Part shown: in pieces, positions 3,934 to 38,785 of the stretch
Position numbering within the stretch: position 1 is the stretch's first letter
Layout: each line of letters opens with the position of its first letter
DNA from: a bacterium
GTDB lineage: Bacteria > UBA9089 > UBA9088 > JAGUXG01
Length of the DNA stretch: 49,388 nucleotides
Assembly (NCBI GenBank): GCA_043798435.1
Contig: JAZDOR010000010.1
Location: forward strand, 1 to 49,388
Direction of reading: 5' to 3'
The notes under the pieces: generated by a model
What the model was told of the DNA's origin: nothing
Database searches by the model: none
Seen by the model: only the letters and a program-made list of their open reading frames with translations
Program-made: the position numbers and the translations under genes

Positions 3934-3973
3934 AATTTTTACCCCTTATTTTTGAATGGTACTGTCAACGACT

Positions 3974-4153: not shown

Positions 4154-4174
4154 TCTTTCATATTTTATCATACT

Positions 4175-4498
4175 TTATTTGACACTACCATAAAAGCCCA
4201 TCCGTCTACACGGTTTTTCAGGTGGTATCATAAGTTGACGAATTACCTCAAAGATTGTCTGAATTTCTTCATCGTGTTTTTCAATCTTTCTTTCAAGTTC
4301 AGTTAACTTATATGCCAGTTCTTTATGCGTTGAAAGGATTTCTCTAAGTTTTACAAATGTCCGCATAATCGCAACATTAACTATAATAGCCCTTTCGCTA
4401 TTAAGAATACTTGAAAGCATGGCTACTCCTTGCTCTGTAAATGCATAAGGTAAATAACGACGACCACCCCAACTTGAGGTGCCAAATTGGCACCTCAA
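4175..4498 (-). pseudogene. ORF6N-domain protein, C-terminal fragment (N-terminal half missing)
   Basis: Contains [31 protein letters not shown], the conserved core of ORF6N/KilA-N-like proteins. The frame opens only about 8 codons upstream and has no ATG. Confidence 0.55.
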
Positions 4499-4573
4499 GA
4501 AATCCTTATATTCTTTTAGGTTCTTTGACTCATCTTACCTTAATCTCCAAATTCTCTTCTATCTCCCCTTCAA

Positions 4574-4780
4574 TCAATCTCGGCAAAAGCATAGCACGGG
4601 TTTGGCGGAAGGTCTGGTTTCATCAGTAATATCCGTTGGAGCAATAAAAGGGAATTCATCACCGAAATATTCTTTAATTGCTGTTGGTGGAGTTTTATCG
4701 GTAACTACTCGACCAATTTCCTTAATCTTTTTTGTTTCCCACCTATTTTCCATAGCACTTTTCCTCATCTCATCCACCAC
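4574..4780 (-). pseudogene. Type I restriction specificity subunit (HsdS) N-terminal fragment
   Basis: W-E-x-KKIKEIGRVVTDKTPPT...FPFIAPTDI matches the start of an HsdS target-recognition domain. The ORF ends after 68 aa. Confidence 0.5.
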
Positions 4781-4786
4781 AATAAT

Positions 4787-5809: not shown

Positions 5810-5846
5810 TACCCAACCTCTGTTTCAACCATTTTTTAATATTTCC

Positions 5847-5990
5847 CTATTGAAACTTAGAATCAGCAAAACGCAAGAATATCAATCCCAAAACCGGCTC
5901 GGCGTAATCTGAAGCCTTTAATTTAGAATTAGCCCGCAGATTATCCGCCGCATCCCACAATCTTTGTTCCAAAGACCTTTCTTTTTTCAA
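5847..5990 (-). pseudogene. Type I R-M methylase (HsdM) N-terminal fragment, 47 codons
   Basis: My translation is (M)[46 protein letters not shown], which fits the HsdM_N motif. It starts 1 nt into the carA stop codon. Confidence 0.6.
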
Positions 5991-7080
5991 GCCAAAACCT
6001 CCTTTCTTCTTTTTATCATCTCAGTAAATTCGTTGAATAGATAGCTGGCATCGTGTGGTCCCGGGGATGCCTCCGGGTGGTATTGGACAGAGAAGATAGG
6101 CAGGCTTTTGTGCCTCATTCCCTCAAGGGTCTGGTCATTTAGGTTGATGTGGGTTATCTCTATATCATCAGGCAGAGATTCAATATCCACACAGAAGCCG
6201 TGGTTTTGAGAGGTGATGTCAATCTTTCCTGTTTTCAGGTCTTTGACAGGCTGATTTCCTCCCCTGTGGCCAAACTTGAGCTTGTAGGTTTTTCCACCAA
6301 GGGCTAAACCTAAAATCTGATGCCCCAAACATATCCCGAAGATTGGTAAGCCTGTGCGAATAAGCCTTCTTACTGTATCTATAGCATTTAGAACACCTGC
6401 AGGGTCTCCTGGGCCATTAGAAAGAAAGATACCGTCTGGATTTAGGGCAAGAATTTCATCAGAGGATGTGCTTGCCGGGACTATCGTGACATTACACCCT
6501 GCATCTGTTAGCATTCTGAGAATGTTATATTTTATCCCAAAGTCTATTGCTACTACCTTGAATCGGTAATCGGTAATCGGTAATCGGTAATTTCTTTGCA
6601 GGTTACTTCCTTGACTAAGTCTCTGCCGACTAATCCAGGAGAGGCTTTTGCTTTTGCCACAAGGCTTTCTGGGTCTAAGTCCAATGTTGAGATGACTGCC
6701 TTCATTGCCCCTTGGGTTCTTATATGCTTGGTCAATGCCCTGGTGTCTGTGCCTTCTATACCGATGATATTATGCTCTTTCAGGTAATCAGGAAGGCTCT
6801 TCTTTGCCCTCCAATTACTGTAAATTCTGCTGTATTCTTTAACCACAAACCCTTCAACCTGCGGTCTTTCCGACTCAATATCCTCGTCGTTCACACCATA
6901 ATTTCCTATCAAGGGATAGGTCATGGTTACAATCTGACCTTTGTATGATGGGTCTGTCAGGATCTCCTGATAGCCGCTCATGCTGGTGTTAAAGACTATC
7001 TCACCAGACTTCTCACCGCTTGCACCAAACCCCTCACCCTCAAACCACCTTCCATCCTCTAAGGCAATGATTGTTTTCAT
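5987..7080 (-). pseudogene. carA: Carbamoyl-phosphate synthase small subunit, reading frame broken inside a heptamer repeat
   Basis: ORF 6553-7080 is the CarA N-domain ([24 protein letters not shown]). The downstream frame reads [22 protein letters not shown]...ICLGHQ (GATase domain). The two frames are offset by 1 nt across 6561-6591. Confidence 0.85.
6561..6591. repeat. (AATCGGT)4 heptamer tandem repeat at the carA frame break
   Basis: aatcggt x4 plus aat. The same word builds the hairpin at 36653-36713. Confidence 0.95.
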
Positions 7081-7236
7081 CAGGTTAAAATTTTTGTAAC
7101 CGCAAAGTTCGCTAAGAATTATAATTAATTTACTACTCTTTTTACCCCTTACTTTAATTAGTAGAAAAATGAACCTATCCCTTTTTCTCTTTATTTCCTG
7201 ATAACTATTGACCAGTAACTAATGACTATCTGTCTA

Positions 7237-7364
7237 ATCCCCTTTTCATTGGGTCGGCTTCAATCTCGAATCTCGAATTGCGAATCTCGAATCTATCTAT
7301 TTCCTATCTTCAGATCCGCAATCCGCGATCCGCAATTCCCGATTTAAACATCCCCTTTTCATTG
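7237..7364. repeat. 19-mer direct repeat pair flanking a heptamer-word segment
   Basis: atccccttttcattgggtc at 7237-7255 and atccccttttcattg at 7350-7364. The segment between them is made of gaatctc and gatccgc words. Confidence 0.85.
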
Positions 7365-7449
7365 TCTTCTCGTGGTTCAACTACCCTCTGGCAAGCCTCT
7401 ATTTTCAAAGAGCTAAGACACCCTTTTCCGTATGGGTCTGATTTTGGCC

Positions 7450-7683
7450 TTATATTAACCCTATTTTTTCCCATATCCCTTTCTTCTCTTGCCTCACCTT
7501 TTTAATCAACTCAATTACCTCTTTCCTGCTCATTGCCTCGGTCTTCTGCTCTAATTCTGCTACAGAGTTACCCTTGTTTAGACCTATCATCTGGAAAAAC
7601 TTGATTGCCTTTATGGGACCTAAGTTCTCATATAAGGTTTCCACCCCTTCCTCTAAAATCTCTTCAGCAATCATTGCATTCAT
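7450..7683 (-). CDS. Small protein immediately downstream of the PIN gene (possible cognate antitoxin)
   Basis: 77 aa. Its start abuts the PIN stop (7683/7684). I recognise no motif with confidence. Confidence 0.45.
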   Translation of the reverse strand: MNAMIAEEILEEGVETLYENLGPIKAIKFFQMIGLNKGNSVAELEQKTEAMSRKEVIELIKKVRQEKKGIWEKIGLI

Positions 7684-8151
7684 TTACTCCACCTCCATCT
7701 CTTCTAAAAAATTCACTGGATTTCTTATCTTGATACTATACCCTAATTTATGTAAATTAGCCTCAAATACTGAAGCATTTTTAGTCAGTTCGTCATCGCA
7801 GGTGAGAAGAAATGTGCAACTTTGCAATGAAGCCGCTATATGTAAAGCATCCATGAAATCCTTCAATTTACAGGCAGATTTAACATCATCCGCCAGCTTT
7901 ATGAGCTGATCATCAACCTGGATTAGTTCAATAGCACTACTATTTATCAGAGATTCAACCTGCTCTTTCTTCTCTATATCTTCAATCAGTGAGACTTCGG
8001 CTATTGCTGCCTCAGAGGTGATTATCTTCAAGAGACCAGCAGATTTCATCAGAAGAAGCTTATTCAAGGACTCAGCCTCATCAAGTATTCTCTCCTGTCT
8101 CAAATCGTCAAATGGTCTACACCATACATTAGTATCCAGATATACCTTCAT
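7684..8151 (-). CDS. PIN-domain protein (VapC-like toxin)
   Basis: MKVYLDTNV N-terminal acidic residue, then SEAAIAEV, DALHIA and LLTCDD acidic positions in PIN spacing. Confidence 0.7.
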   Translation of the reverse strand: MKVYLDTNVWCRPFDDLRQERILDEAESLNKLLLMKSAGLLKIITSEAAIAEVSLIEDIEKKEQVESLINSSAIELIQVDDQLIKLADDVKSACKLKDFMDALHIAASLQSCTFLLTCDDELTKNASVFEANLHKLGYSIKIRNPVNFLEEMEVE

Positions 8152-8190
8152 CTTCCCTACCTATTATAAACCATCTGCCTAACTATCGCA

Positions 8191-8471: not shown

Positions 8472-8771
8472 TTATCCCATACATTCTTTCAACCCCGCAT
8501 ATCTCTCTTTCCATCCACAGTATGCCTGATGGAGACCTTCCCATATAATAAAGTTGTCCCATTCTTCAAAGTTTTCCTCTTTTGCCTTCTTTATCTTCTC
8601 CTCAAATCTTTCATAAGGCATCCCATACTTCTTCTCAAAGGAAAGCATCCTGCTTCGATAATACTCCATCTTTGTGGATGCCTCAAAGAGTAGAGAGCGA
8701 ACGATATCAGTTCCTCCTTTCTCTTCTTTTACCCACCTGGGCACTTGAATTTCCATAGTTACTGTTTCCAT
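8472..8771 (-). CDS. Hypothetical small protein
   Basis: 99-aa ORF, charged and helical-looking (FEKKYGMPYERFEEKIKK). No confident family assignment. Confidence 0.4.
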   Translation of the reverse strand: METVTMEIQVPRWVKEEKGGTDIVRSLLFEASTKMEYYRSRMLSFEKKYGMPYERFEEKIKKAKEENFEEWDNFIIWEGLHQAYCGWKERYAGLKECMG

Positions 8772-8839
8772 CTTACTTTATTCCTCCTGTTCTTACTATA
8801 CCCAAACAAATCAGGTTTGCAAAAATTGTGTTCGTTTAT

Positions 8840-8919
8840 GGTTCTGAGGTTCACGGTTCAAGGTTAAAGAATAAGAAGATTAACCGTGAATCTTGAACCC
8901 TTTAACCCCTGAACCTGAG
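8840..8919. repeat. Heptamer-word inverted repeat (GGTTCAA/GGTTCTG words)
   Basis: ggttctgaggttcacggttcaaggttaaag ... ttaaccgtgaatcttgaaccctttaacccctgaacctgag. Same word family as carB block 2 and as 47779-47865. Confidence 0.8.
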
Positions 8920-9275
8920 TAGTTACTTTTTTGTAAACCAATTTCTTTTCGGTATATTATCCACTTTACACCCTCCTTGATATCTTCACCAATCTTTTTT
9001 CCTAAGGCATTTATAGGATAATGGACATTTTCTCCATTTCTGAGACAGAATTATGGCTCCGGTTGATGGCTATACGAGTTGACGAAGAATATCTTCTCTT
9101 CTTTGGGTTCAAACTCTCCAAAAGAGAAGAATGCCTGGGGAGGAGAAAGAAAGGCTTAACAGAACATTTCCTATCACAGCTTAGATGAATCTTTCGTATC
9201 TTGCAGGAATTCTTCTCTGTCTCTAATTGGGTCAATTACCTAAACTCTATCTCCATCTCCTTTTCTTGCACTACC

Positions 9276-11093
9276 CTACCTTTTTGCTTTGGCAGAACGC
9301 TTTCTATCGTTTTCGTCCAGAAGCCGCTTTCGGAGTCGGATAGAGAGGGGGGTGACCTCAACAAGTTCATCATCTGAGATAAACTCTATTGCCTGCTCAA
9401 GGGAGAGCGAGCGTGGAGGGGTGAGCTGAATATTTTCATCGCTGCTTGCGGCACGCATATTGGTCAGCTTCTTTGATTTAAGAGGGTTGACCACAAGGTC
9501 ATTCTCCCGTGAATGCTCTCCAATAATCATTCCACCGTAACATTTTACCCCTGGTCCGATAAAGAGCACCCCTCGCTCCTGAAGATTGAAGAGGCCATAA
9601 GCCACAGCGATACCCTGTTCCATTGCCAGCAAAACTCCTCGAGAGCGAGTCAGAATCTCGCCCTTGTATGGGCCGTAGCAATCAAAGACATGATGGAGAA
9701 CACCAGTTCCTCTTGTTTCAATAATAAGCTCAGACTGGAGACCAAACAGACCGCGGGAGGGGATTCTGTATTCAAACCTGGCTCTGCCATCCCTGCCGAT
9801 ATGATGATGGAGAATCTCACCCTTTCGCCTGCCAAGTTTTTCAATCACTATGCCCTGATAAACTTCCTCCACATCCACTGTTAAGAGCTCATATGGTTCA
9901 AGCCTCTCACCATTGATTTTTTTGAGAATTACATGCGGCTTAGAGACAGCGAGCTCATAGCCCTCCCTTCTCATATTTTCAATCAGTATAGAAAGGTGCA
10001 GCTCACCTCGTCCGGATACCTTAAAGATACCATTTTCCATCTCCTCAACCCGCAGGCTGACATTTGTTCTAATCTCCCGAAAGAGTCGTTCACGAAGATG
10101 ACGGCTGGTGAGATATTGCCCTTCAGTTCCAGCAAGCGGTGAGTTATTCACCATAAATTCCATTGTCATAGTTGGCTCACCGATATCTATCGGTGGAAGT
10201 GGCTGAGGATTCTCTAAATCAGCTATAGTTTCGCCAATCTCTATTCCCTCCAGACCCGCGATTGCCACTACATCACCCGCCTCTGCAGAATTAATATCTG
10301 TCCGCTCAAGCCCGTAGAATCCATACAGCTTTGTTACCTTGCCTTTTTCAATACTGCCGTCCCGCTTGATACGAACTATGGGGTTTCCGATATTCAGGAT
10401 ACCGTTTTCAATCTTTCCTATAGCTATACGACCCACATAGTTATCGTAGTCAAGCGTAGTCACTAACATTTGCAAGGGGAGACGAGAAGATCCAGATGGA
10501 GGGGGAATATGGGTTAAAATCATCTCAAAAAGTGGACTGAGGTTTTTCCCTGGGGTCTTGATGTTGCACATCGCATAGCCTTCCTTAGCTGAGGCATAAA
10601 TGATGGGAAAGTCAAGTTGCGTATCATTGGCACAAAGTTGAGCAAAGAGATCAAAGGTTTCCGACACGACCTCGTCAGGCCGAGCCTCCAGGCGATCTAC
10701 CTTGTTTATCACCACAATCGGACAGAAGCCAAGCTGAAGCGATTTAGCCAGGACAAATTTAGTCTGTGGCATCGGCCCATCCACAGCATCCACAAGAAGC
10801 AGAACCCCGTCAACCATCTTGAGAATCCGTTCCACCTCTCCGCTGAAATCCGCATGGCCTGGCGTGTCAACGATGTTTATTTTATGCCCCTGATAATGGA
10901 TAGCGGTATTTTTCGCCAGGATAGTAATCCCGCGTTCCCGTTCAAGATCATTAGAATCCATCACCCGCTCACAAACAGTCTGATGCTCACCAAAGGTGCC
11001 GCTCTGGCGAAGCAAGCCATCCACAAGCGTGGTCTTTCCATGATCTACATGCGAAATGATAGCGATGTTACGAATTTTTTTCTGAGTGCTCAT
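9276..11093 (-). CDS. typA: Translational GTPase TypA/BipA
   Basis: [27 protein letters not shown] and NKVDR G-motifs; EF-G-like domains; C-terminal [20 protein letters not shown]. The start is set at the internal ATG (11093) in front of the G1 motif. Confidence 0.93.
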
Positions 11094-11221: not shown

Positions 11222-12808
11222 GTGAAGAGTAAGAAAGGTGTTAGAAAAAGATGGCTTCTTCCTTTATCATATATAACAGTTCTTTTAGGAGCATGCTTCT
11301 TTTCTCTGTTTCTCTTTTATTTCTACTGCCTCAACATCCCTCTTGCCACGCTTACAATCTCTACTATTACTATCTTCTCCTTCCTCTGGATAGGATTCTC
11401 CTGGTTGTTGGTTCGCTTCAGATTGACCAAAGACAGACTGAAAGAGGTTTTGATAAATAATGGCGTTAGCTATATTGTCTTCCTTCCTTTGTTGACCATC
11501 TTTTTGAAAGATATGGGTTTTTATAACCCCAATATCTGGCATGCCTTTCTGTTCATCATAGTCTTTGGTCTCTTTTTCTTTCTGAAGATGAGGCTCATTG
11601 ACTGGCAAGCAGAGAGAAAGATGTTTCCTATGAAATCCTCCATTATCCCTTTGGCTATATTGTCCTTCTTTATTCTATTTTATATCGCGGTATTTACTCT
11701 GCTCAATTTCTTGAGATATGATTGGCTGATGACTACCACTGACCTTGGTGCATGGAACCAGATATTCTGGAACACTATCAGAGGCAGGATTCTCCATTCA
11801 ACCTGGTATGGTCATAACTTTCTTGGAGAGCATATGTCTCCTATTCTTATACTTATTGCTCCTATCTATAGCCTGTGGCAAGACCCAAGAATGCTCTTAT
11901 TCTTCCAAACCTTCTTTACTGGTATTGCTGCTATTCCTATCTATCTGATAGCTTACCATAAGCTAAAAGACAGATTCCTTTCCTTAGTCTTTGCCTGTTG
12001 TTGGCTCCTCCATCCATTCCTCTCCCGGATAAATCTTTGTGGCTTCTATGAGGTCTCTTTGGCTCCATTTTTGCTCTCTCTTACCTTCCTTGCCTTAATC
12101 AAACAAAGGATTAAAACCTATTTTCTTCTTGCCTTCCTCTGTCTGATGATAAAAGAGGAGATGTCGCTCTTGATGGCATTCTTTGGGGTTTATATATTCC
12201 TTAGACATAATAAGAAGATAGGAATTATTACCATAGCAACAGCCCTTTTATGGGGGCTTATATCCCTTAAGTTACTCACACCAAACATCTCACCTGTATT
12301 AGGAGAAAAGGCAACATATCAACATATTGAAAGATACAGACACCTTGGAAAAAACCTTTCTGAGATAGCAGGGAATATCCTTTTTCATCCTATAGCTATT
12401 GGAAAGATTATTTTGGCTCCAGAAAAGATAATTACCATTATCCTCCTATTCCTTCCCTTTGGTTTTTTCTCCCTCTTTTCTCTCTCCTTTCTTCCCGGCA
12501 TGCCCATCCTTTTAATGCACCTTATTGCCTACTTTCCCATTCAATATAACCTTTTCTGGCACTACTCTGCCCCAATCCTACCATTTATGGCTATCTCTGC
12601 TATCTATGGATTTGCAAATATAGTAGAGAGACTCAAAAGATATAAAGTAGCGATTCCCCTTTCCATCTCTATCCTCATAATTTCCCTCTTCTCTAACCTG
12701 TATTTCAATAGATTTAGCTTCTCCTATAAACCCTTTCCTGAGAACCCAGAAAATTACAAGCCCGACATCCAGAGAACCTTTCTCTCTACCCCAGGGTATA
12801 TAGTATGA
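11222..12808 (+). CDS. Polytopic membrane protein, DUF2079-like
   Basis: About 14 hydrophobic segments. DLGAWNQIFWNT...GEHMSPILILIAPIYSLW resembles the DUF2079 core. Confidence 0.6.
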   Translation: MKSKKGVRKRWLLPLSYITVLLGACFFSLFLFYFYCLNIPLATLTISTITIFSFLWIGFSWLLVRFRLTKDRLKEVLINNGVSYIVFLPLLTIFLKDMGFYNPNIWHAFLFIIVFGLFFFLKMRLIDWQAERKMFPMKSSIIPLAILSFFILFYIAVFTLLNFLRYDWLMTTTDLGAWNQIFWNTIRGRILHSTWYGHNFLGEHMSPILILIAPIYSLWQDPRMLLFFQTFFTGIAAIPIYLIAYHKLKDRFLSLVFACCWLLHPFLSRINLCGFYEVSLAPFLLSLTFLALIKQRIKTYFLLAFLCLMIKEEMSLLMAFFGVYIFLRHNKKIGIITIATALLWGLISLKLLTPNISPVLGEKATYQHIERYRHLGKNLSEIAGNILFHPIAIGKIILAPEKIITIILLFLPFGFFSLFSLSFLPGMPILLMHLIAYFPIQYNLFWHYSAPILPFMAISAIYGFANIVERLKRYKVAIPLSISILIISLFSNLYFNRFSFSYKPFPENPENYKPDIQRTFLSTPGYIV

Positions 12809-16330: not shown

Positions 16331-16367
16331 TTGTTCCTCCTTAAATGTAATCACTGCGATAGTGATA

Positions 16368-16558
16368 GTGTAAGAAAAGGGGATAAGGGGATTATTATAG
16401 AGAGATGGGGATAAAATTAAGAATTAAAAATGAATAATCTCCTTATCCCCCTTTTTACACTCTTGCTGTATAACCTGAACGGTTACTAAAAATAGCTATC
16501 AGCTTTCAGGTATTTTTATTGCCTGACTACTGATACCTGATACCTGAATGCTATTTAC
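16368..16558. repeat. Nested inverted-repeat element (GGGGATAAGG arms plus ACCTGAACGGTTAC terminus plus CTGATAC words)
   Basis: gtgtaagaaaaggggataagggga (16368-16391) against tccttatccccctttttacac (16440-16460). aacctgaacggttac lies at 16472-16486 and acctgaatgctatttac at 16541-16558. Confidence 0.8.
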
Positions 16559-30724: not shown

Positions 30725-31621
30725 TCATAGTATAGGAATTTCCTTTTTTAATCTGTGAAATCCTCGGTAATCTGTGGATTTAAGCTCTTTCTTGGTTTTG
30801 TTTGATGGCAAAAAATTTTGTCCGGTTACAACACTTTTTCCTGTTTTTTGCTCAAGTGCTTTTCTTGCATCTTTGGCGATTTTACCGCCTTTCTTGGCTG
30901 GAATTTTATTCTCTTCCAATCCTTCCGCTTTCTCGGTTTCAGCAATTCTTCTTGTGGAAAGTTCCGCAAGAGCAGTAAAAATCAATTCTTCCTCGCTCAT
31001 ATGATCCCGCAAGTTTTGCGTTTTCAAATTCTTCAAATTTTTATGATCTTTTATAGACAACTCGCTCCATTCTTGATGGATAATATTTGTCAAAATTGCA
31101 AACTCTTCGCCTTTCTTCACGCTATGATCACTCCAATAGTCAGTAAGTTTATTCCTTGTTTCCTGCCCCATCATTCTTTGCTGTATCCACTTTTCGCTTC
31201 GTCCCTGCTTTTGCCAATATTCACGACTGCGATTCAATGCTTTTTCAGGATCAGTCATCTCCTGCATTCTTTCATAGCCTACTTTAGCAAGCCAGAGCTT
31301 AATCGGTTCAGCTTTTTTGCTGGGAACAGATTGAATAAGACGAAGAATTGTTTCTACATCCGCAACATCGGTTTCTCTCATTTTTCCGTCTTGAGCCAAC
31401 ATTTTCAACTGGTCACATTTTGTGACCAGTTCACTCCCCTCATTTTTTAAGCGATTTTTCAGGGTAGTCCAATAACTCTTGGCTTTCTTGTAATCCCTTT
31501 GCTCGGTAAGTGCCGCGATAATATCAATTACGGAAAAATACCAAGTTTCGGTTTTTTCGTCGTAATGACGGCGGATTTTAAAATTTTCGAAGATAGCCAA
31601 TGAGTTTTGATTCTTTTCCAT
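30725..31621 (-). CDS. Bro-N / DinD-like DNA-damage-inducible-type protein
   Basis: FENFKIRRHYDEKTETWYFSVIDIIAALT and KLWLAKVGYERMQE are present. Start set at ATG 31621; the longer track ORF reads into repeat arm 31637-31680. Confidence 0.65.
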   Translation of the reverse strand: MEKNQNSLAIFENFKIRRHYDEKTETWYFSVIDIIAALTEQRDYKKAKSYWTTLKNRLKNEGSELVTKCDQLKMLAQDGKMRETDVADVETILRLIQSVPSKKAEPIKLWLAKVGYERMQEMTDPEKALNRSREYWQKQGRSEKWIQQRMMGQETRNKLTDYWSDHSVKKGEEFAILTNIIHQEWSELSIKDHKNLKNLKTQNLRDHMSEEELIFTALAELSTRRIAETEKAEGLEENKIPAKKGGKIAKDARKALEQKTGKSVVTGQNFLPSNKTKKELKSTDYRGFHRLKKEIPIL

Positions 31622-31636
31622 ATTTATAAAAAACAG

Positions 31637-31783
31637 AGTAACCACAAAGGACGCAAAGTAAATCGCAAAGGACACAAAGAGAAAGAATTATGACAGAAAA
31701 CGAAATAGCTAATAAAGCAATTGGTACTCGTAAATTAATTCTTAGCGAACTTTGCGTAATTCTTTGCGTTCTTTGCGGTAAAG
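31637..31783. repeat. CAAAG-word inverted repeat enclosing a 5-prime remnant of a GxxExxY-type gene
   Basis: Arms are taaccacaaaggacgcaaagtaaatcgcaaaggacacaaagag and cttagcgaactttgcgtaattctttgcgttctttgcggtaaag. Between them, ATG 31690 (+) opens MTENEIANKAIG..., which then runs into the repeat. A shortened copy of the right arm lies at 7098-7135. Confidence 0.6.
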
Positions 31784-31827: not shown

Positions 31828-31871
31828 CTCATTCTGACTCCTGTATTCTGAATTCTGTATTCTTGCTACCT
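31828..31871. repeat. 44-nt copy (43/44 identical) of the 5-prime flank of the four-helix-bundle cassette
   Basis: ctcattctgactcctgtattctgaattctgtAttcttgctacct, compared with 40766-40809 which has C at the capitalised position. Confidence 0.95.
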
Positions 31872-31877
31872 GAGCAA

Positions 31878-32792
31878 TTATGGTCTTGGAAGCAAACCAG
31901 CCTTTTCTACAATAACTGGCACAGCCTCTTCCCATTCTATAGCCATAATATGGACACCAGCGACACCCTCAATTTTCTTTAATCTTTCTATAGCCTCTAC
32001 ACATATTTTTATCCCTTCTTCTTTGGGATTGGAAGCCTCCTTTACCCTATTCATCAGTTCTTCTGGCACATTTACGCCAGCAACATTATTATTCATATAC
32101 TTAGCCATACCAAAGGACTTCAGCGGTATCAGACCAACCAAAAGATGAGCCTTTGTATCCAGCCCCATCTGCCTTACCTCTTTCATCCACTCCTCAAGTC
32201 TATCTATATCATAGATAGCCTGGGTCTGAATAAAGTCTGCACCTGCCTGTATCTTCTTCCTGAGCCTGAAAATCCTGATCTCGGTTGGGTCGGAGAATGG
32301 AGACTCAGCCGCACCAATGAACATTCTCGGTTCTACATCCTTAATCTCTTCTCCGCATATAAATTTTTTATCATTACCCATTCCTTTGACTGCTGCCACA
32401 AGCTGAATTGAATCAAGGTCAAAAACATTCTTTGCCTGCGGATGATTGCCAAACTTCTGGTGGTCTCCTGTCAGGCAGAGGATATTCCTTATTCCCAAAG
32501 CATACGCACCCAAAATATCAGACTGCATAGCAATCCTATTTCTATCGCGGGTGACCATTTGCATAATCGGCTCTAAGCCCAAGGAGACCAGAATAGAAGA
32601 TGCAGCTATAGAGCTCATCCTAACAATGGCTGTCTGATTGTCAGTAACATTGACCGCATCAACAAACCCTTTAAGAATCCCTGCCTTCTTTTCAATCACA
32701 GCTCTATCCGCATTCTTTGGGGGGCCAAGCTCAGAGGTAACCACAAAATTTCCAGACGATAAGAGTTTCTCTAAATTACTTCCTGATTTCAT
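31878..32792 (-). CDS. metF: Methylenetetrahydrofolate reductase, acetogen-type catalytic subunit
   Basis: FVVTSELGPPK, VNVTDNQ, MVTRDRNRIA and LCLTGDH motifs. Adjacent to metV. Confidence 0.88.
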   Translation of the reverse strand: MKSGSNLEKLLSSGNFVVTSELGPPKNADRAVIEKKAGILKGFVDAVNVTDNQTAIVRMSSIAASSILVSLGLEPIMQMVTRDRNRIAMQSDILGAYALGIRNILCLTGDHQKFGNHPQAKNVFDLDSIQLVAAVKGMGNDKKFICGEEIKDVEPRMFIGAAESPFSDPTEIRIFRLRKKIQAGADFIQTQAIYDIDRLEEWMKEVRQMGLDTKAHLLVGLIPLKSFGMAKYMNNNVAGVNVPEELMNRVKEASNPKEEGIKICVEAIERLKKIEGVAGVHIMAIEWEEAVPVIVEKAGLLPRP

Positions 32793-32806: not shown

Positions 32807-32966
32807 GTAAGTGTTTAATCTATCTATCAAAGAGTGTAAGAAGGGGGATAAGGAGATAATGGGGATATGGAGATTATTCATTTTTTAAGGGGATGGAGAT
32901 ACTTATATTATCCCCACATCCCCCTAATCCCTATATCTCCTTATCTCCTCACCTTTTCTTACACTA
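32807..32966. repeat. Nested inverted-repeat element filling the metV-metF spacer
   Basis: gtaagtgtttaatc ... gagtgtaagaagggggataaggagataatggggatatggagat ... atccccacatccccctaatccctatatctccttatctcctcaccttttcttacac. The right arm overlaps the metV stop. Confidence 0.85.
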
Positions 32967-33657
32967 CCGCAGCGATTACTTCCTTTTTGGTTATGGCCAC
33001 ATCTTCCCTAATTATCCTCCTTGGACCGCCATCCCTCCCGAAAGACCAGTCCTTTGGTGGTTTTATCTCAGCAAGGTTTTCCAGCTTTCCCAAAATCTTG
33101 AGCCTATCATAGATAAGCTGCCAGCCACAAGGGGTCTCTGGACCTACCTCACATTTACCATTATTTGAACCTCCGCAGGGTCCATTCAAAAGGCTCTTTG
33201 AGCAACGGGCTATGGGGCAGATGCCACCAAACTTATGCAATCCACAATCTCCACAAGCCCCGCAGGTCTCTACCCATACCCCCTGTTCCTCTGGCAATCC
33301 AATAAACTTTGTATTCAAGGCTGGATAGATTGGGATTTTCTCAAAGAATTGAGCCATAGCCTGAACACCTACCCCACAGCCCATTGAAAGTATAGCCTCT
33401 ACACCTTCTATCTTACCCTTCAATTCCTCAACAAACTCCCATTCACATTGACGCTGGATACAGGCTTCTGTAATCTCCGGCTCTTTTCCATCAAGCCTCA
33501 AAGCCATCCGTAGGCAAGAGCCTAATATTCCAACCTCCTTTTCACCCCCGGCCATACAAACAGTCACGCAAGTGCCGCAACCCACAACTAATATCTTCTG
33601 ACAATCCGCCACCATAGCCTTTATCTGGACAAGGGGCTTCTGCTGTGCAACTATCAT
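32959..33657 (-). CDS. metV: Methylene-THF reductase small (zinc-ribbon / Fe-S) subunit MetV-like
   Basis: Cys-rich: GCGTCVTVC, CGACGDCGLHKFGGICPIARCSKSLLNGPCGG, CEVGPETPCGW. Confidence 0.8.
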   Translation of the reverse strand: MIVAQQKPLVQIKAMVADCQKILVVGCGTCVTVCMAGGEKEVGILGSCLRMALRLDGKEPEITEACIQRQCEWEFVEELKGKIEGVEAILSMGCGVGVQAMAQFFEKIPIYPALNTKFIGLPEEQGVWVETCGACGDCGLHKFGGICPIARCSKSLLNGPCGGSNNGKCEVGPETPCGWQLIYDRLKILGKLENLAEIKPPKDWSFGRDGGPRRIIREDVAITKKEVIAAVV

Positions 33658-34253
33658 ATCTTTTCCTCCTTTCTGATAAATTTTAACAAACTTTCTACAT
33701 CACCGATAAAATGCTTAAATGAACTGTCGTTCTTTCCTGCTTCATAAAGATCCATTTCCTGAACAATCTCTTCTGCAAAATCAGGTGCTCCCAGAGGGGC
33801 AACTTTACCACTTTCTTTAATTGCATCATCAAAAAGATTTTTGTAATACCCCTTTTTACACTTAGCCCTTTTAACAGGATGTGTTTTTTTAGTCCCTAAT
33901 ACCTTATTCAGGGCAGAAGCATCCAGCATATACCATTTTTCAATATGTGGATTGGGAATAGCCAAAGCATATAAAGTTAAAGAATTTTCTCCAACAATCT
34001 TGGCTATCTTTTTTCTCATCTCCCTATATGGGTTACAGTTAGAATCAATAGCAACTATCAAAAATCCATCTAATAGACTACCTTTCATATCCCTAAGGAA
34101 GCTTTTAAGTTCAGTGAGAACAGAACCTTTTCCTCCGGAAGCGTTTCTGACAATATGGTCAATCTTTACATTTCGGCAAATCTTTTCTGTCAATGCCTTA
34201 ATAAAAGACTCCTGTGCAATATCTTCTAAAAAGTAGAATACTTTGGATTTCAT
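33654..34253 (-). CDS. DUF4276/Toprim-like partner of the ATPase (assignment tentative)
   Basis: 199 aa. N-terminal FYFLEDIAQESF has an acidic residue like the vEG.tE motif, and a later IVAIDSN acidic patch is present. ATGA overlaps occur at both ends (34250-34253 with the ATPase, 33654-33657 with metV). Confidence 0.45.
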   Translation of the reverse strand: MKSKVFYFLEDIAQESFIKALTEKICRNVKIDHIVRNASGGKGSVLTELKSFLRDMKGSLLDGFLIVAIDSNCNPYREMRKKIAKIVGENSLTLYALAIPNPHIEKWYMLDASALNKVLGTKKTHPVKRAKCKKGYYKNLFDDAIKESGKVAPLGAPDFAEEIVQEMDLYEAGKNDSSFKHFIGDVESLLKFIRKEEKI

Positions 34254-35575
34254 CCGCCGTAGTCTCCCCTTATAATCCTTTCTCCAATGCTCGGTTTTTC
34301 TAAAGCCTTTTCAATGTTACTCTGTTTAATGCTTGGTTCTTCTAAAGTCTTTTCAATGTTACTCTGCTTAAAAATTTGTGATTTATCAAACTGCCTGAAT
34401 GAGGTCGCATAGTCACTCTTTTCACAAACAATGATTTGTGAAGGTTCAAAGAAATCCGGAAAAAGGGTAGAATGGGAATTGATAAGAAATTGTGAGTCGC
34501 TCCGTCTGGCTGCATTCTGAAACAAGTCAGCAATAAGCTTCAGTCGTCTGGGATGAACACCATTTTCAGGTTCTTCATATCCTACAACAGAAGTAGGTTC
34601 TATAGGATTGGTAATTCCAAGTAAGGCTAATATCCTAAGTGTGCCCTCTGAAACTACCCTTGCCGAAAACCATCCCTCACCTTCACGAACCATAAGTAAA
34701 AGTCGCCCTGATTTAGGATTTCGTTCAATTCTTATCTCATCCACAGCAGGAATGATAGTCTTTAAAGATTTATTAAAAGAGTTGAATCGCTCTTCGTAAT
34801 GAGTGATTAAGGTATTATAGAAAGCAGAAAGGGAATCTCCAAAAGAACCAAGGTTTCGCACCTCTTTCAACTCGTTCTCTTCCCGCATTATGTCTGGTTC
34901 AAGGTAGTAAAATCTCCATCTGGAAAGCTCTCTTTGAAAGGCATTGATGTGGGGATAGTGGGGTAGATATAATGGTCTTGAGACAATAGTATAGTCCAGA
35001 CCAATGTCATTCTTGCGGGGAGCTGATTTACCTTCCATGCGGAGACGAATTGAGTCTTTGACAACCTCAATAAAAGGTTCTGGTCTCTGTCTTTCTGTGC
35101 CATCTTCACGAAGAGCAACCAACTTTTCTTCTCTAACTTGAAGATGTCCAGAGTCTGGTCGAATACCTATGGTGAGGTAATACCGCAAGAATTTATGAGT
35201 AATACGCCTTTTATCACTTTCTTTTGAGTCTTTTTTGGGCAGTCCTTCACGCATTTTTTGTATCTCTTTCTCAATACTCTCAACAACATCTTTTGAGAGT
35301 TCCACATCTATCTCCACAGAGAATGTAGCTATATCTTTTTTCATAACATCTTCAATGCCTGAGTCACAATAAAAGGCTTCAATGGGATCGCCCCTGTGTT
35401 CTTCAAAAGCCTCCTTCAGTGTTCTGGAGGTAACAATACGACTAACTAGTTTTAGCAAGTCAAATAGATTGCTTTTACCTGCGGCATTTGGACCAATAAT
35501 GATAGTCAATGGCTGTAAGCTAACTTCAATATCCTTCAGTGACTTGTATCCTTTTACCTTAACCCTGGTAATCAT
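34250..35575 (-). CDS. ABC/AAA15-AAA21-type ATPase (OLD/PARIS AriA/Septu PtuA-like fold)
   Basis: Walker A GPNAAGKSN, signature-like SEGTLRILALL, Walker B VVGYEEPENGVHP, and H-loop LINSHS. The start VKVKGYKSLKDIEVSL is typical of this clade. Confidence 0.85.
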   Translation of the reverse strand: MITRVKVKGYKSLKDIEVSLQPLTIIIGPNAAGKSNLFDLLKLVSRIVTSRTLKEAFEEHRGDPIEAFYCDSGIEDVMKKDIATFSVEIDVELSKDVVESIEKEIQKMREGLPKKDSKESDKRRITHKFLRYYLTIGIRPDSGHLQVREEKLVALREDGTERQRPEPFIEVVKDSIRLRMEGKSAPRKNDIGLDYTIVSRPLYLPHYPHINAFQRELSRWRFYYLEPDIMREENELKEVRNLGSFGDSLSAFYNTLITHYEERFNSFNKSLKTIIPAVDEIRIERNPKSGRLLLMVREGEGWFSARVVSEGTLRILALLGITNPIEPTSVVGYEEPENGVHPRRLKLIADLFQNAARRSDSQFLINSHSTLFPDFFEPSQIIVCEKSDYATSFRQFDKSQIFKQSNIEKTLEEPSIKQSNIEKALEKPSIGERIIRGDYGG

Positions 35576-35577
35576 TT

Positions 35578-36153
35578 TTATATCTTTTCCTCCCTTTGCA
35601 TCTCTTTCAATTTTTCAAGATACTGAACATCTATTATATCTTTATGTCTGCCTGTCTTCTTCAGTTTAATCAGGTCATCAATGGATGGAAGGTTTACCTC
35701 TGCCCCTGTCCTTTCATCCTTGGGTGTCCTTCTGTTTTTATATATCTCCTCAAACGAAATGACCTCTCCTTCTTGATTGCCTATCTTTTTACAGCGAAAG
35801 ACATCAATGGTAATATCGTTCTCTAACTTGAACATAAAGCACTCCTTCATTTTTTCTAATGGTCTTGATGGAAAGAGATCAAATTTTTCAGCTATTTCAA
35901 GAAACTTCCTGGTATTTTCATCACTGCCATCAATATAAAGGTCGTAGTCTATGGTAGCCACAGGGATTCCATAAGCTATCATTGCCTGCCTGCCTATCAA
36001 AAGATACCGTATGCCTTCTTTGTGGATAGCCTTGATAAAATCAATTGGATCGGTTGAATCAGTCATAGTTTTAGCCTCATCAGGGTCAGGGTGGCTAATG
36101 TATGTTGATACCCAATCCTTAACCTCTTCTCTAAAGGAAACTTGGACAGCCAC
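35578..36153 (-). CDS. Minimal nucleotidyltransferase-fold protein (AbiEii/DUF6036-like)
   Basis: LLIGRQAMIAYGIPVATIDYDLYI (G-x...DxD) and C-terminal LPSIDDLIKLKKTGRHKDIIDVQYL. The true start may be the internal ATG at 36069. Confidence 0.55.
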   Translation of the reverse strand: MAVQVSFREEVKDWVSTYISHPDPDEAKTMTDSTDPIDFIKAIHKEGIRYLLIGRQAMIAYGIPVATIDYDLYIDGSDENTRKFLEIAEKFDLFPSRPLEKMKECFMFKLENDITIDVFRCKKIGNQEGEVISFEEIYKNRRTPKDERTGAEVNLPSIDDLIKLKKTGRHKDIIDVQYLEKLKEMQREEKI

Positions 36154-36278
36154 CTGATTAGCCCCTCAATGTGCCTCTCCTCATCTTCCTTTATTGGAGA
36201 ATGAAGCACAGATTCTTCATAGGCCTTTTCCCATTCTTCGTCTTTCATATCTTTCTGGGGTTTTCTTTCCCTTTTCAT
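36063..36278 (-). CDS. Small charged ORF between the protease and the nucleotidyltransferase-like gene
   Basis: 71 aa. ATGA overlap with the protease stop. Overlaps the long form of the next ORF. No family recognised. Confidence 0.3.
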   Translation of the reverse strand: MKRERKPQKDMKDEEWEKAYEESVLHSPIKEDEERHIEGLIRWLSKFPLEKRLRIGYQHTLATLTLMRLKL

Positions 36279-36637
36279 TTTAACGGCTTTGCTGTCATTC
36301 TTTTTAAGGTCATAGTAACCGGATCAACACCAATCCCTACATTTTCTAATGCTACAACCCCTAAAATTGGCTCTGTATTCTCAGGTCCAAAGATAATCTG
36401 AGATATAGTCTCGGAGCCCATAAACGAAATCCTTGCAAAACCATACTTATATTCTACTGATTGGCCATTAGCCAATTCATATACTGCCTTTCCTTCAACT
36501 TGAATACCGGCCTTTATTAACTCGCTCTCTGAAGCCATACAATCTATAGAACCTGTATCAACTAAAAACGATTCTTCGTATCCTGGCAGGGATTTTATCA
36601 GATTTGAAACATTTACCGTAACTTTTGTTACTCCCAT
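36275..36637 (-). CDS. Retropepsin-like (clan AA) aspartic protease, second copy
   Basis: FLVDTGSIDCM active-site motif and ILGVVALENVGIGVD C-terminal motif. Confidence 0.7.
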   Translation of the reverse strand: MGVTKVTVNVSNLIKSLPGYEESFLVDTGSIDCMASESELIKAGIQVEGKAVYELANGQSVEYKYGFARISFMGSETISQIIFGPENTEPILGVVALENVGIGVDPVTMTLKRMTAKPLK

Positions 36638-36652
36638 TCTTTCACCTCCTTT

Positions 36653-36713
36653 AATCAGGTAATCGGTAACCGGTAATCAGGTAACCGATAACCGATTACC
36701 CGATTACCGATTT
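36653..36713. repeat. CGGTAAT-word hairpin between mvhD and the protease gene
   Basis: aatcagg taatcgg taaccgg taatcag gtaaccg ataaccg attaccc gattacc gattt. The left and right words are complementary. Same word as the carA tract. Confidence 0.85.
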
Positions 36714-37125
36714 ATATTTTCTTCCTCAATGGGTTTGGTCCCAATGCTCGTACTTTTTCTGTCATCTCCCGGGCTGCCTCAGCAAACTTTGGCCCCATAG
36801 AGGCACTCATATTATACATCTCCAGCCTCTCTCCATCAAGACCAATTTCAGTGAGCAGCTTTTTGGCTCTCTGGACCCTTCTCTTTGCCTTGATATTGCC
36901 GTCAGTGAAATGGCAGTTGCCCTCAAGACAACCAGCCACATACACGCCATCTGCCCCATCCTCAAAGGCTTTAAGCAGATAGATAATATCCACCTTGCCT
37001 GTGCAGGGCAGTTTAACTATCTTCACATTTGCTGGATAGTTAAGCCGCATAGAGCCAGCCAAATCAGCAGCCCCATAAGCACAGTAATGACAACAAAAAG
37101 CAACTATCTCTGGTTCAAACTCCAT
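36712..37125 (-). CDS. mvhD: MvhD-like (methyl-viologen-reducing hydrogenase delta subunit family) electron-transfer protein
   Basis: IVAFCCHYCAYGAADLAG, VKLPCTGKVD, GADGVYVAGCLEGNCHF. Confidence 0.85.
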   Translation of the reverse strand: MEFEPEIVAFCCHYCAYGAADLAGSMRLNYPANVKIVKLPCTGKVDIIYLLKAFEDGADGVYVAGCLEGNCHFTDGNIKAKRRVQRAKKLLTEIGLDGERLEMYNMSASMGPKFAEAAREMTEKVRALGPNPLRKKI

Positions 37126-37173
37126 TCTCAGATACCTCCTTCCACAAAAAATTTTCTTTTTTAACTATAAATT

Positions 37174-37313
37174 GTAACCGTTCAGGTTATGTATCAGAAG
37201 TGTAAGAAGGGGGGGATAAGGAGATAATGGAGATAGAAGATATTATTATATTATCCCCCTATCCCCTTCCATAATCCCCACATCCCCTTTTCTTACACTA
37301 CCTGAATGCTTAC
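37174..37313. repeat. 140-bp MITE-like nested palindromic element with GTAACCGTTCAGGT/ACCTGAATGCTTAC termini
   Basis: The outer arms are at 37174-37187 and 37300-37313. The inner arms are gaagtgtaagaaggggggataaggagataatggagata and tatccccctatccccttccataatccccacatccccttttcttacac. Confidence 0.85.
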
Positions 37314-37381
37314 CTATAATTTCAACATATAAGATTAGTTAAAGTCAAACATTTTTTGTAAGGCTTCGCCAATTCCTATAT

Positions 37382-38548
37382 TTATCTACTGTAGATTCCT
37401 TTGTCAACAAGGAAGGTTATTGCCTTTGCCAGATATGAGCTTTTGAGCAGGATTGCCCCTTGTGGGCATAGCTCCTGACAGCAGTAGCAGCGGATACATT
37501 TAGCATCATTTATCTTTGCTTTTGCATCCTTTAGCATAAACGGAGTTCGGGATTCAGTTGAATGCTTTGTGCCTTTGTGCCTTTGTGCCTTTGTGCCTTC
37601 CATTATTTTTATAGCTTCTCTTGGACAGGTCTTTTCACAAACCCCACAGCCAATGCAGACCAGAGAGACAAAAGGCTTTGCTGTAAAGAAAGGCTTCAGG
37701 TATCTCCCAAATCTTCCCCAGGGGGCAACACCTTGTGGCAGTCGAAGGGGAGGGGATATAGGCACAACCTCATCACCAAGCCACTCACACCCATCAAATT
37801 TTGCTCTCTCTGAAAGACCAGGGACTATCTCAGGCTTCCATCCAATCAATCTGCAAGCTGCAAGGTCAGCTAAGATAGGATTATCGCTCACGATTATCCA
37901 GCCTATATCTCTAAGAATGCCTCCAGATGGACCATTTCCCTCCATGCCAACGATTCCATCCACTATAGTCAGCTTTGGCTGGACAACATCTGCAAGAGAA
38001 AAAAGCATACTTGCAAAATCCCCTATCTTTGGTAATGTTGAATGATACCCCAGCTTATCAAAGCCAGGGATAAGACCAAAGAGGTTCTTTACGCCGCAGC
38101 TTAAAATGGTGTATGAATGGGTCTTCAGCTTTGGGATATTGACTACAGAATCTACATCACTTATAAGATTTATCAGCCTGAATCCCTTGCCATCTCTAAA
38201 AAAGCTCTTATATCCCGTGTCATAATTCAGATTGACTCCCAAACCTTCCATCTGGGTGATTCGGTAGAGTTTCTTGAGGGATTCTTTTGTGTAAGGGATT
38301 GCCATGCCAAGGCTATCAGCAAGATGGGGTCTGCCCCCGTTAGAATTAATCAAGTCAGATACAGCTTTGACCACGGCAGGATGTGTGGTTATTCCCTTCT
38401 CTGGAGGGTAGTAACCAAGAAGGTTTGGTTTGAGAAGAGTCTTTCCCTTTAGAGCATCTATTCCGCCTATAAGCTCTATCCCTCTCTTTACTGCCGCAAA
38501 TACCTTCTCCTCATTATAACTATTACACCTTATAGTCGCAACCTTCAT
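37382..38548 (-). CDS. DUF362-domain protein with a C-terminal 2x[4Fe-4S] ferredoxin domain
   Basis: N-terminal MKVATIRCNSY..LLKPNL and TH..T.L..GVKN are DUF362-like. The clusters CIGCGVCEKTCP and CIRCYCCQELCP are separated by an atypically long repeat-encoded linker. Confidence 0.75.
   Translation of the reverse strand: MKVATIRCNSYNEEKVFAAVKRGIELIGGIDALKGKTLLKPNLLGYYPPEKGITTHPAVVKAVSDLINSNGGRPHLADSLGMAIPYTKESLKKLYRITQMEGLGVNLNYDTGYKSFFRDGKGFRLINLISDVDSVVNIPKLKTHSYTILSCGVKNLFGLIPGFDKLGYHSTLPKIGDFASMLFSLADVVQPKLTIVDGIVGMEGNGPSGGILRDIGWIIVSDNPILADLAACRLIGWKPEIVPGLSERAKFDGCEWLGDEVVPISPPLRLPQGVAPWGRFGRYLKPFFTAKPFVSLVCIGCGVCEKTCPREAIKIMEGTKAQRHKGTKHSTESRTPFMLKDAKAKINDAKCIRCYCCQELCPQGAILLKSSYLAKAITFLVDKGIYSR
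37563..37597. repeat. Octamer tandem repeat (GCCTTTGT x4) inside the ferredoxin domain
   Basis: tgctttgt gcctttgt gcctttgt gcctttgt gcc, translated as KAQRHKGTKHS. Same CACAAAGG words as the intergenic arms at 48875-48941. Confidence 0.9.
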
Positions 38549-38606
38549 TAGATGAATCTTTATTAGCTTATAGCTTATAGCTATCTATAGTCTATCTAAA
38601 ATTTTC

Positions 38607-38771
38607 GTAAGCGTTCAGGTAGTATAAGAAAAAGGGATATGGGGAAGGTTAATAGAAGTCAGAATTCAGGAGTCATGAATTAGAATACAGGAGTCAGAAT
38701 ATTCTTAATTCTGGATTCTGTATTCTGTATTCTGTATTCTCTCTCGTTTAATACATAGCCTGAACGGTTAC
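38607..38771. repeat. 165-bp nested palindromic element with GTAAGCGTTCAGGT/CCTGAACGGTTAC termini enclosing an empty four-helix-cassette scar
   Basis: The termini are at 38607-38620 and 38759-38771. The inner agaatacaggagtcagaat (38682-38700) is the exact reverse complement of attctgactcctgtattct at 40769-40787 and 31831-31849. Confidence 0.85.
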
Positions 38772-38785
38772 AAAAATTGTCAAAC

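Follow-up and report, generated by a model that had tools for sequence, protein, structure and literature searches.

Five small, tightly packed genes interrupt a Wood–Ljungdahl operon in a 49,388-nt stretch of bacterial DNA (contig JAZDOR010000010.1 of GenBank assembly GCA_043798435.1, GTDB lineage UBA9089; UBA9088; JAGUXG01), hereafter the window, and their layout raises the question of whether they form one defence system or several unrelated units that came to share a site. The five genes lie between mvhD and metV: a retropepsin-like protease gene (module 1), a small open reading frame (ORF) with a nucleotidyltransferase (NTase)-fold gene (module 2), and an ABC ATPase gene with a DUF4276 partner (module 3). 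The initial annotation favoured a single, possibly undescribed, abortive-infection or defence cassette, leaving two or three stacked small systems as the alternative. We consider it likely that the mvhD–metV junction is a hotspot of insertion, occupied by three small modules that are independent of one another, co-oriented and promoterless, and not by one system. The observations behind this reading are the anatomy of the block, the family assignments of its genes, their independent distributions, a direct repeat around one module and the relative divergence of the genes.

Occupancy of the mvhD–metV junction in sister genomes

To compare the junction across the lineage, NTase homologues were traced to their own contigs and to species-representative genomes. 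The resulting pattern of presence and absence rests on seven genomes only, all of them metagenome-assembled genomes (MAGs): the small ORF/NTase pair is present in all seven (7/7) and the ATPase/DUF4276 pair, which we assign below to the HEC-01 type, in two (2/7). The window carries all three modules. L001/L002, the relative with a 93% identical NTase, carries the protease gene and the small ORF/NTase pair but no HEC-01 pair; L047/L048 (NTase 79% identical) carries the small ORF/NTase pair and HEC-01 but no protease gene; and L003, L004, L005 and L007 carry the small ORF/NTase pair with neither of the other two modules. The modules thus segregate independently in sister genomes, and each occurs alone elsewhere. 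Outside the lineage of this genome, the five genes' homologues were not found together in any case, and no other locus holds all five. These distributions speak against the single-cassette proposal and bear out its stated alternative of stacked small systems. Nor did the small ORF/NTase pair arrive as part of a cassette: it is a resident of the site throughout the lineage, and because it always lies between them, mvhD and metV, which had been taken to be normal neighbours, are never directly adjacent there. In L003 the start of the small ORF overlaps the mvhD stop, and the metV start overlaps the NTase stop.

Other small modules occupy nearby junctions in the sister genomes (Table 1). L005 has a toxin–antitoxin (TA) pair, UPF0175 plus a DUF3368-like gene (3844–4630), in the gap between mvhD and the small ORF, the position that the protease gene takes in the window. 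In L004 the metV–metF gap contains a pair made up of a small ORF and a DUF6036 gene, with MNT/HepT pairs upstream of mvhD, and L001/L002 has an SNF2-NOV_C helicase gene overlapping the end of metV and a gene for a 576-aa AAA_15/21 ATPase upstream of mvhD. With different small TA and defence modules at its junctions across genomes, the region behaves as an accumulation hotspot. In this it resembles defence islands and embedding hotspots, where different TA or defence genes lie at the same or nearby positions in sister genomes, and also defence embedding (bioRxiv 10.1101/2024.01.29.577857), where the embedded genes are co-oriented with the host operon. It differs from them in that the host is a core acetogenesis-type operon and the cassettes, having no spacers or promoters of their own, are joined by stop–start overlaps.

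Within the window, the five ORFs lie where they had been placed, all on the minus strand and embedded co-directionally in the mvhD–metV–metF operon, whose genes Pfam confirms. The motifs claimed for them are found in the translations: DTGS in the protease; GPNAAGKSN, EEPENGVHP and NSHS in the ATPase; and IGRQ...DYD and KKTGRHKD in the NTase. Four of the five junctions match the earlier description, namely the 4-nt overlaps at 36275–36278, 34250–34253 and 33654–33657 and the 2-nt gap at 35576–35577, which agree with both coordinates and sequence. A further ATGA overlap, at 36063–36066, puts the NTase start on the stop of the small ORF; this start, the ATG at 36066, gives the 162 aa of the deposited call P0001. 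The deposited annotation gives the small ORF 71 aa, while the start that is conserved is probably an ATG inside it, at 36248, which yields 61 aa beginning with MKDEEW. In L001, the closest relative, the ATG further upstream lies out of frame, and the calls in relatives are 63–64 aa long, so that the overlap between the protease gene and the small ORF is not a conserved coupling. The block is also not translationally joined to mvhD, as had been claimed: a 74-nt spacer with a strong hairpin separates the two. GC content is 0.35–0.41 across the block versus 0.43–0.48 in metV and mvhD. Promoter and terminator consensus scans over 31.5–38.9 kb gave chance-level matches, which say nothing on co-transcription; a scan of the whole window at the Rfam gathering threshold gave no match, and a PHROGs search with the five block proteins returned nothing useful.

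Table 1. Positions of the operon genes, inserted modules and repeats in the window, and of related features in other loci.
Locus	Feature	Position	Strand	Remarks
Window	mvhD (FlpD family; upstream operon gene)	36712..37125	-	Pfam FlpD 1.2e-50; NCBIfam VhuD 5e-54 (sub-cutoff); 88-92% identity to relatives
Window	Hairpin element, 58 nt, in mvhD-protease spacer	36652..36706	.	Inverted repeat I6; perfect stem, GGTAATC/CCGATTA heptamers
Window	Retropepsin-like gene, module 1, 120 aa	36275..36637	-	Clan AA, DTGS
Window	Small partner ORF, module 2a, 71 aa annotated	36063..36278	-	Antitoxin-like
Window	NTase-fold gene, module 2b, 162 aa	35578..36066	-	Divergent DUF6036 member; toxin-like
Window	Left 17-nt direct-repeat copy	35580..35596	.	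Repeat family D14; NTase 3' end
Window	HEC-01A-type ABC ATPase (AAA_15/AAA_21), module 3a, 441 aa	34250..35575	-	
Window	DUF4276 (TOPRIM-like) partner, module 3b, 199 aa	33654..34253	-	
Window	Right 17-nt direct-repeat copy	33656..33672	.	Last codons of 199-aa gene, ribosome-binding site (RBS), ATGA start of metV
Window	metV (DUF5981, methylenetetrahydrofolate reductase (MTHFR) C-terminal-like; downstream operon gene)	32959..33657	-	Pfam 1.4e-37
Window	Palindromic MITE-like element in metV-metF spacer (166 nt)	32833..32965	.	Repeats D1, D6, D8, D17, I5
Window	metF (MTHFR)	31878..32792	-	Pfam MTHFR 4.1e-42
L001	Other defence/TA genes near operon junctions	631-2361 and 4600-8190		
L004	Other defence/TA genes near operon junctions	1284-2477, 8573-9371, 11230-11830		
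L045	Protease homologue in type I-C operon	4001-4363		
L103	Protease homologue in type I-C operon	3001-3360		
L105	Protease homologue in type I-C operon	2795-3154		

The HEC-01 pair and its 17-nt repeat

As judged by profiles, the ATPase and the 199-aa protein are an ABC-ATPase/TOPRIM-like (DUF4276) defence-type pair, as had been suggested. The pair is not an undescribed one, since a PADLOC run names it as the published candidate HEC-01 ('Hma-embedded candidate 01'), a combination of ABC ATPase and TOPRIM discovered within Hma defence operons (Payne et al., bioRxiv 10.1101/2024.01.29.577857). The ATPase matches the HEC-01A model PDLC04184 (E-value 1.2e-61) with residues 1–371 on profile positions 1–389 of 464, and seven further HEC-01A models at 1e-31 to 1e-48; its Pfam matches are AAA_21 (1.5e-25) and AAA_15 (6.6e-22), with a Walker A motif GPNAAGKS, EEPE and NSHS. 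The 199-aa protein matches HEC-01B (1.7e-5), mad4 (9e-5) and DUF4276 (0.019). Among its homologues, PF14103 is carried by 13 of 20 (those at 36–43% identity), and a single HEC-01B model recognises at most 11 of the 21 family members. Residues E10 and D11, D70, C73, H103 and E105 are invariant in the family and N72 nearly so; in the structural model, with a pLDDT score (predicted local distance difference test) of 90, E10/D11 follow strand 1 and D70-x-N72 follows strand 3, which fits the Toprim layout of DUF4276, a family placed in the Toprim superfamily as a Mad4 homologue (PMC12065111).

The pair has the HEC-01 arrangement of an AAA_15/21-annotated ATPase gene followed by an overlapping DUF4276/TOPRIM-like gene of ~200 aa, with HEC-01 the best PADLOC match for both, and it is embedded co-oriented in another operon, as in the discovery of the HEC candidates. 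It differs in residing in a Wood–Ljungdahl operon and not in an Hma or defence operon, in the 17-nt duplication at the host junction, and in its divergent, weakly scoring partner. ATPase/DUF4276 pairs at 40–70% identity also stand alone, co-oriented, among unrelated housekeeping genes (L050, L051, L053 and L054). By inference from OLD/PARIS/Gabija-type systems, the ATPase would sense infection and license the TOPRIM-like partner to cut nucleic acid. The logic of an ABC ATPase with a TOPRIM-type nuclease is common to MADS, PARIS, Gabija and OLD-family systems, and we rejected three of these as assignments. MAD3 scores 149.5 bits (1.5e-43) against a cutoff of 420 and MAD4 15.6 against 160, and the block has no methylase or other MADS gene. 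For PARIS, AriA matches at 2e-26 only, well below HEC-01A, the partner is DUF4276 and not the DUF4435 of AriB, and there is no AriB match. For Gabija, GajA matches N-terminal residues 2–98 only (~1e-13), the block has no GajB helicase, and ATPase and TOPRIM are separate proteins here. The ATPase gene also contains, inside its 3′ end, a 42-nt tandem duplication (34286–34369; 90% identical copies, repeat family D2) that encodes a 14-aa repeat, QSNIEKxLExPSIK. ATPase forms of 441 and 428 aa are both found in public data, the 428-aa L048 orthologue being without the duplication.

A 17-nt stretch ending ...GGAGGAAAAGATAT lies on both sides of the HEC-01 pair, with 94% identity between the copies and a spacing of 1924 nt. 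The corresponding NTase/metV junction is cleanly empty in L001, L003, L004 and L005, where it reads ...ATGCAAA(G/A)GGAGG(A/G)AAAGATATGATAGTTGCAGA... and a single ATGA is common to the NTase stop and the metV start. In the left copy the NTase stop is changed from TGA to TAA; in the right copy the KEEKI* end of the 199-aa protein copies the REEKI* of the NTase, a tail that the closest homologues from other contexts do not have. The same left junction is present in L048, along with a version of the repeat that has diverged. Around the HEC-01 pairs in the four other contexts, a search for flanking direct repeats gave none, which makes the 17-nt repeat site-specific and not a general HEC-01 signature. 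HEC-01 would have inserted exactly at the NTase-stop/metV-start overlap, duplicating 17 nt, and through this duplication the new last gene would have taken the old C-terminal codons, RBS and ATGA overlap, keeping the coupling to metV.

Synonymous divergence (dS) between the window and L047/L048 is 0.39 and 0.38 for the two HEC-01 genes, versus 0.62 for mvhD, 1.00 for the small ORF, 1.41 for the NTase gene, 0.64 for metV and 0.55 for metF, values that are noisy, the genes being short. As the closest sister of each carrier is without HEC-01, the lower dS favours one insertion followed by exchange between two sub-lineages, presumably by homologous recombination through the conserved flanks. In a separate comparison, mvhD, the small ORF and the NTase gene of the window are closest to L001 (dS 0.29–0.62) and metV is equidistant from the metV of L001, L003 and L048 (dS 0.62–0.65), a contrast that hints at a recombination breakpoint at the NTase/metV junction.

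Two other accounts of this pair have to be weighed. HEC-01 could have been ancestral at the site and then lost several times by recombination between the flanking repeats: direct repeats favour precise deletion, the empty sites are clean, and the derived left junction (GATATAAAAA-ATG) is common to the window and L048, each of which has kept the repeat. However, this course needs at least three independent precise losses (in L001, in L003 and in the L004/L005/L007 group) as against one gain plus one transfer, and it has to accommodate a dS between the carriers that for HEC-01 is below that of every flanking gene; we think it somewhat unlikely. A second account makes the ATPase a housekeeping protein of SMC/RecF type and treats the 199-aa ORF as an unrelated hypothetical gene; we find it hardly credible. 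While the N-terminus of the ATPase does match RecF, SMC and Rad50 models weakly, these matches cover the P-loop only (~residues 2–55) at 1e-6 or weaker, whereas the near-full-length match is to HEC-01A; moreover, the 199-aa partner is conserved and overlapping in every homologous locus, and the pair is absent from most sister genomes.

The small ORF/NTase pair and the solo retropepsin-like gene

Searches of Pfam, PADLOC, NCBIfam, PHROGs and PDB sequences gave no family match for the 162-aa protein, but its call as a minimal nucleotidyltransferase fold proved right at the level of structure: the AlphaFold2 model (pLDDT 88, predicted TM-score 0.83) matches the putative NTase TM1012 (6e-6), MenT1 (8an5_B, 2e-5, TMq 0.68) and LnuA (4e-5) by Foldseek. 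The family aligns with a DUF6036 protein at 98% hhalign probability (E 1.7e-13), and PF19502 matches 11 of 32 family members at E <= 0.01. Residues invariant across the family are G25 and R26, the D40-x-D42 centre (D40-Y-D42), D88, D131, K136, K142 and D143, and D146.

All NTase homologues with >=70% identity are in the gap between mvhD and metV. Elsewhere we found one at 68% (L135) and all of those at <=60%, from Saganbacteria, Margulisiibacteriota, Elusimicrobia, Nitrospirae, Planctomycetes and other lineages. The 104 neighbours of the distant loci fall into 99 sequence clusters, so that none of them is conserved. A partner ORF recognisable by a common motif adjoins the NTase gene in ~23 of 28 distant loci, downstream in 3 (high-GC loci) and upstream in ~20, where it is an overlapping ORF of 47–66 aa with an invariant Trp and the NIxWFxKF..L..RL pattern seen in the window. 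In L021, L023 and L036 the partner is fused to an N-terminal XRE-type HTH_3 domain, above the Pfam threshold. The partner family itself has no Pfam, PADLOC, PHROG or PDB match, PDB searches with the NTase sequence and with the profiles of both families gave chance-level matches only, and in the full-text literature on DUF6036 we found no functional study.

A two-gene unit that is mobile, a larger protein with an NTase fold and a small partner with, in some cases, a fused DNA-binding domain are traits typical of TA modules. Going by the MenT1 fold match and the co-match of AbiEii and DUF6036, MenAT1 and AbiE would be the nearest characterised analogues. They share with the window pair an NTase fold of ~160 aa, a DxD centre, a C-terminal K..R.KD..D helix and a small overlapping partner gene; the window pair differs in its undescribed partner family, in a motif I that reads GR and in being fixed in a housekeeping operon. 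Sequence identity between MenT1 (Rv0078A) and the window NTase is ~15%, with no sequence-level PDB match. On the strength of the MenT1 fold and the AbiEii-type family link, the NTase may be a toxin that nucleotidylates RNA such as tRNA 3′ ends, and the small partner would hold it in check through direct binding. The ratio of non-synonymous to synonymous divergence (dN/dS) is 0.04–0.24 for the module 2 genes (0.04–0.2 for the small ORF), that is, both are under purifying selection in the window lineage, and since the divergence of both is no smaller than that of the operon genes on either side, the insertion is old. Module 2 would have entered the junction in an ancestor of the lineage and been kept under purifying selection since. 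We also observed that the 68%-identical pair (L135, 5835–6477; also L136) stands at the head of an operon of DRTGG / CBS-HATPase / DRTGG / PHP / HATPase / NuoE-like genes and overlaps the gene that follows it by an ATGA, a second coupling to an energy-metabolism operon.

The 120-aa protein of module 1 was correctly called retropepsin-like. It matches TIGR03698 (2.4e-10; 40.7 bits against a curated cutoff of 57.35) and Pfam gag-asp_proteas, PF13975 (1.4e-4; 22.8 against 28.2 bits), both below cutoff, as is PF13650 (21.4 against 24.3). Because some homologues at 70–80% identity carry PF13975 or PF13650, the protein is best treated as a divergent clan AA subfamily. Across 37 homologues F24-L-V-D27-T28 is invariant, G29 nearly invariant and G93, in the C-terminal ILG motif, conserved. 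Like the clan AA proteases of TIGR03698 and gag-asp_proteas/Asp_protease_2, the protein is a single domain of ~120 aa with D-T-G-S and a C-terminal ILG motif; unlike them, it scores below the curated cutoffs, and its subfamily keeps an unusually high identity (63–87%) across phyla and occurs as a solo ORF within operons. We collected 932 homologues in this identity range from many phyla, many of them named clan AA aspartic protease.

No conserved partner of the protease gene emerged from 80 metagenome loci, where 138 flanking ORFs form 108 clusters and vary in orientation and spacing. Nucleotide similarity of the window to a Desantisbacteria contig (82%) extends over 17 nt of RBS plus the ORF only and ends at the stop. 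The protease gene is probably a solo ORF that moves as RBS plus coding sequence and lands in operons, here between mvhD and the small ORF. One homologue lies between two CODH/Prismane genes of a cdh operon; in L045 (Methylococcus sp. Mc7) and in the metagenome contigs L103 and L105 the homologue separates cas7 from cas4 in a type I-C CRISPR-Cas operon, and cas7 or cas4 adjoins it in four more loci (L086, L096, L091 and L114). Neighbours seen in single cases are MazF, DUF5615, a caspase-like protein, PDDEXK_3, a DUF6036/AbiEii NTase (L061) and an AAA_21 ATPase (L073). In the Desantisbacteria cdh operon that carries a protease homologue (L040, 99–3614), the CdhD and Prismane products also have PDDEXK_3 matches, which suggests, from the sequence, further small mobile ORFs inserted into or fused with Wood–Ljungdahl genes. 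PDB sequence searches with the protease and its family profile gave chance-level matches only, and PADLOC has no models for the protease, small ORF or NTase. Scans of viral contigs for the protease and NTase families found no relatives, and so give no evidence of phage carriage of either gene. A full-text literature search combining retropepsin with defence and TA terms turned up no functional study; small retropepsin-domain proteins have been listed as non-core CRISPR-associated genes in Sulfolobales (PMC3973734). A defence-associated role of the protease is possible, as a lead and not a result.

Weighing the readings, and what surrounds the operon

The case for one integrated abortive-infection or defence system, with all five proteins acting together, starts from the appearance of the block: its genes are co-directional and tightly packed, with overlapping stops and starts, all five have a defence- or TA-like flavour, and protease homologues occur beside an AAA_21 ATPase and beside a DUF6036/AbiEii NTase. 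These two neighbourhoods are, however, single cases among the 80 loci, and the independent presence and absence of the three units in sister genomes, the finding of HEC-01 pairs, NTase pairs and protease genes each alone elsewhere, and a HEC-01 dS below that of its flanks make a five-gene system very improbable. A different question is whether the small-protein/NTase pair has become a domesticated accessory or regulator of redox operons, for example one that nucleotidylylates a MetFV-MvhD/Hdr subunit or a cofactor-handling protein. That all seven relatives keep it, under purifying selection, at one and the same translationally coupled position, and that the 68%-identical pair heads another energy-metabolism operon with an ATGA overlap, would agree with such a role; yet the contexts of homologues at <=60% identity are unrelated and not conserved, fusion of the partner to an HTH domain is a hallmark of autoregulated antitoxins, the nearest NTase folds include the bona fide TA toxin MenT1, and the family falls within the DUF6036/AbiEii/DUF2204 group. 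We regard domestication as quite unlikely. Several points nevertheless weigh against three independent defence- or TA-type modules, beyond the small set of MAGs and the noisy dS values mentioned above. It is unusual for a TA-like pair to be kept at one site through saturated synonymous divergence, which gives room for a domesticated role; the 162-aa protein has no Pfam match of its own, and its motif I reads GR, not G[GS]. The 199-aa protein's own profile matches are weak, and a Foldseek search of its pLDDT-90 model against the PDB found no TOPRIM structure (best E 0.03, to unrelated alpha/beta folds), so that the evidence for the TOPRIM link comes from profiles, conserved residues and the literature. 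In the single published assay (bioRxiv 10.1101/2024.01.29.577857), HEC-01 did not protect against the coliphages tested, and all of the biochemical activities named here, as well as any anti-phage role, are ones that we infer. At the junctions of the protease insert there is a short repeat, AAAATAT[A/G]A (~9 nt), which is A-rich and only suggestive.

At both the HEC-01 insert and the protease insert the left ATGA has become ATAA. We raise tentatively, and think it unlikely, that this reflects a general cassette capture, in which promoterless defence or TA ORFs insert at housekeeping ATGA junctions with duplication of the upstream 3′ end and RBS, represented here by the 17-nt repeat around HEC-01 and the shorter one around the protease gene, the protease being an uncharacterised defence-associated cassette of this kind. 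If so, the newcomers would be expressed by coupling to essential Wood–Ljungdahl genes and would be hard to lose.

The surroundings of the operon are rich in repeats. The hairpin in the mvhD–protease spacer folds with a free energy of -35.5 kcal/mol (z = -6.8). L001, which is otherwise collinear, does not have the hairpin, and the blastn alignment is interrupted precisely here; it may be a REP-like (repetitive extragenic palindromic) or insulator element, and the same heptamer is tandemly repeated at 6565–6587. A palindromic element of ~100–130 nt that resembles a miniature inverted-repeat transposable element (MITE), with termini AGTGTAAGAAGGGGG...CCCTTTTCTTACACT, is present in three copies (16367–16461, 32833–32965 and 37199–37299): the second fills the metV–metF spacer and the third lies just upstream of mvhD. 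In L003 and L048, metV and metF abut with no such spacer. Directly downstream of metF is a gene with a Bro-N domain (30725–31675, minus strand; phrog_15286 match 1e-92), probably another mobile gene beside the operon. Upstream of mvhD, inverted-repeat pairs at 37172–37322 and 38598–38773 (48 nt, 83% complementary, and 37 nt, 81% complementary) lie on either side of a DUF362/4Fe-4S gene (37382–38548), and short repeats of the ATTCTG type recur at 31831–31863 and 38654–38740.

The locus illustrates that a tight, overlapping block in a core operon can pass for a novel multi-gene immune system when it has in fact built up from small independent modules, and that comparison of sister genomes settles which of the two it is. 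Going by their sequences, the modules appear to be of known kinds: a HEC-01 member, a DUF6036/MenT-like TA-type pair with an undescribed partner family, and a solo clan-AA protease-like gene. The DUF6036-like NTase with its previously undescribed partner family is a clean candidate TA pair for experiment, and HEC-01, which here appears to have moved between related genomes, is probably under selection in its native hosts. What remains noteworthy is that a junction in a central-metabolism operon, that of the Wood–Ljungdahl genes, repeatedly receives TA and defence genes in a lineage that is uncultured and acetogen-like, that a 17-nt repeat preserves the coupling to metV, and that a highly conserved solo retropepsin-like gene recurs inside operons, CRISPR-Cas among them.

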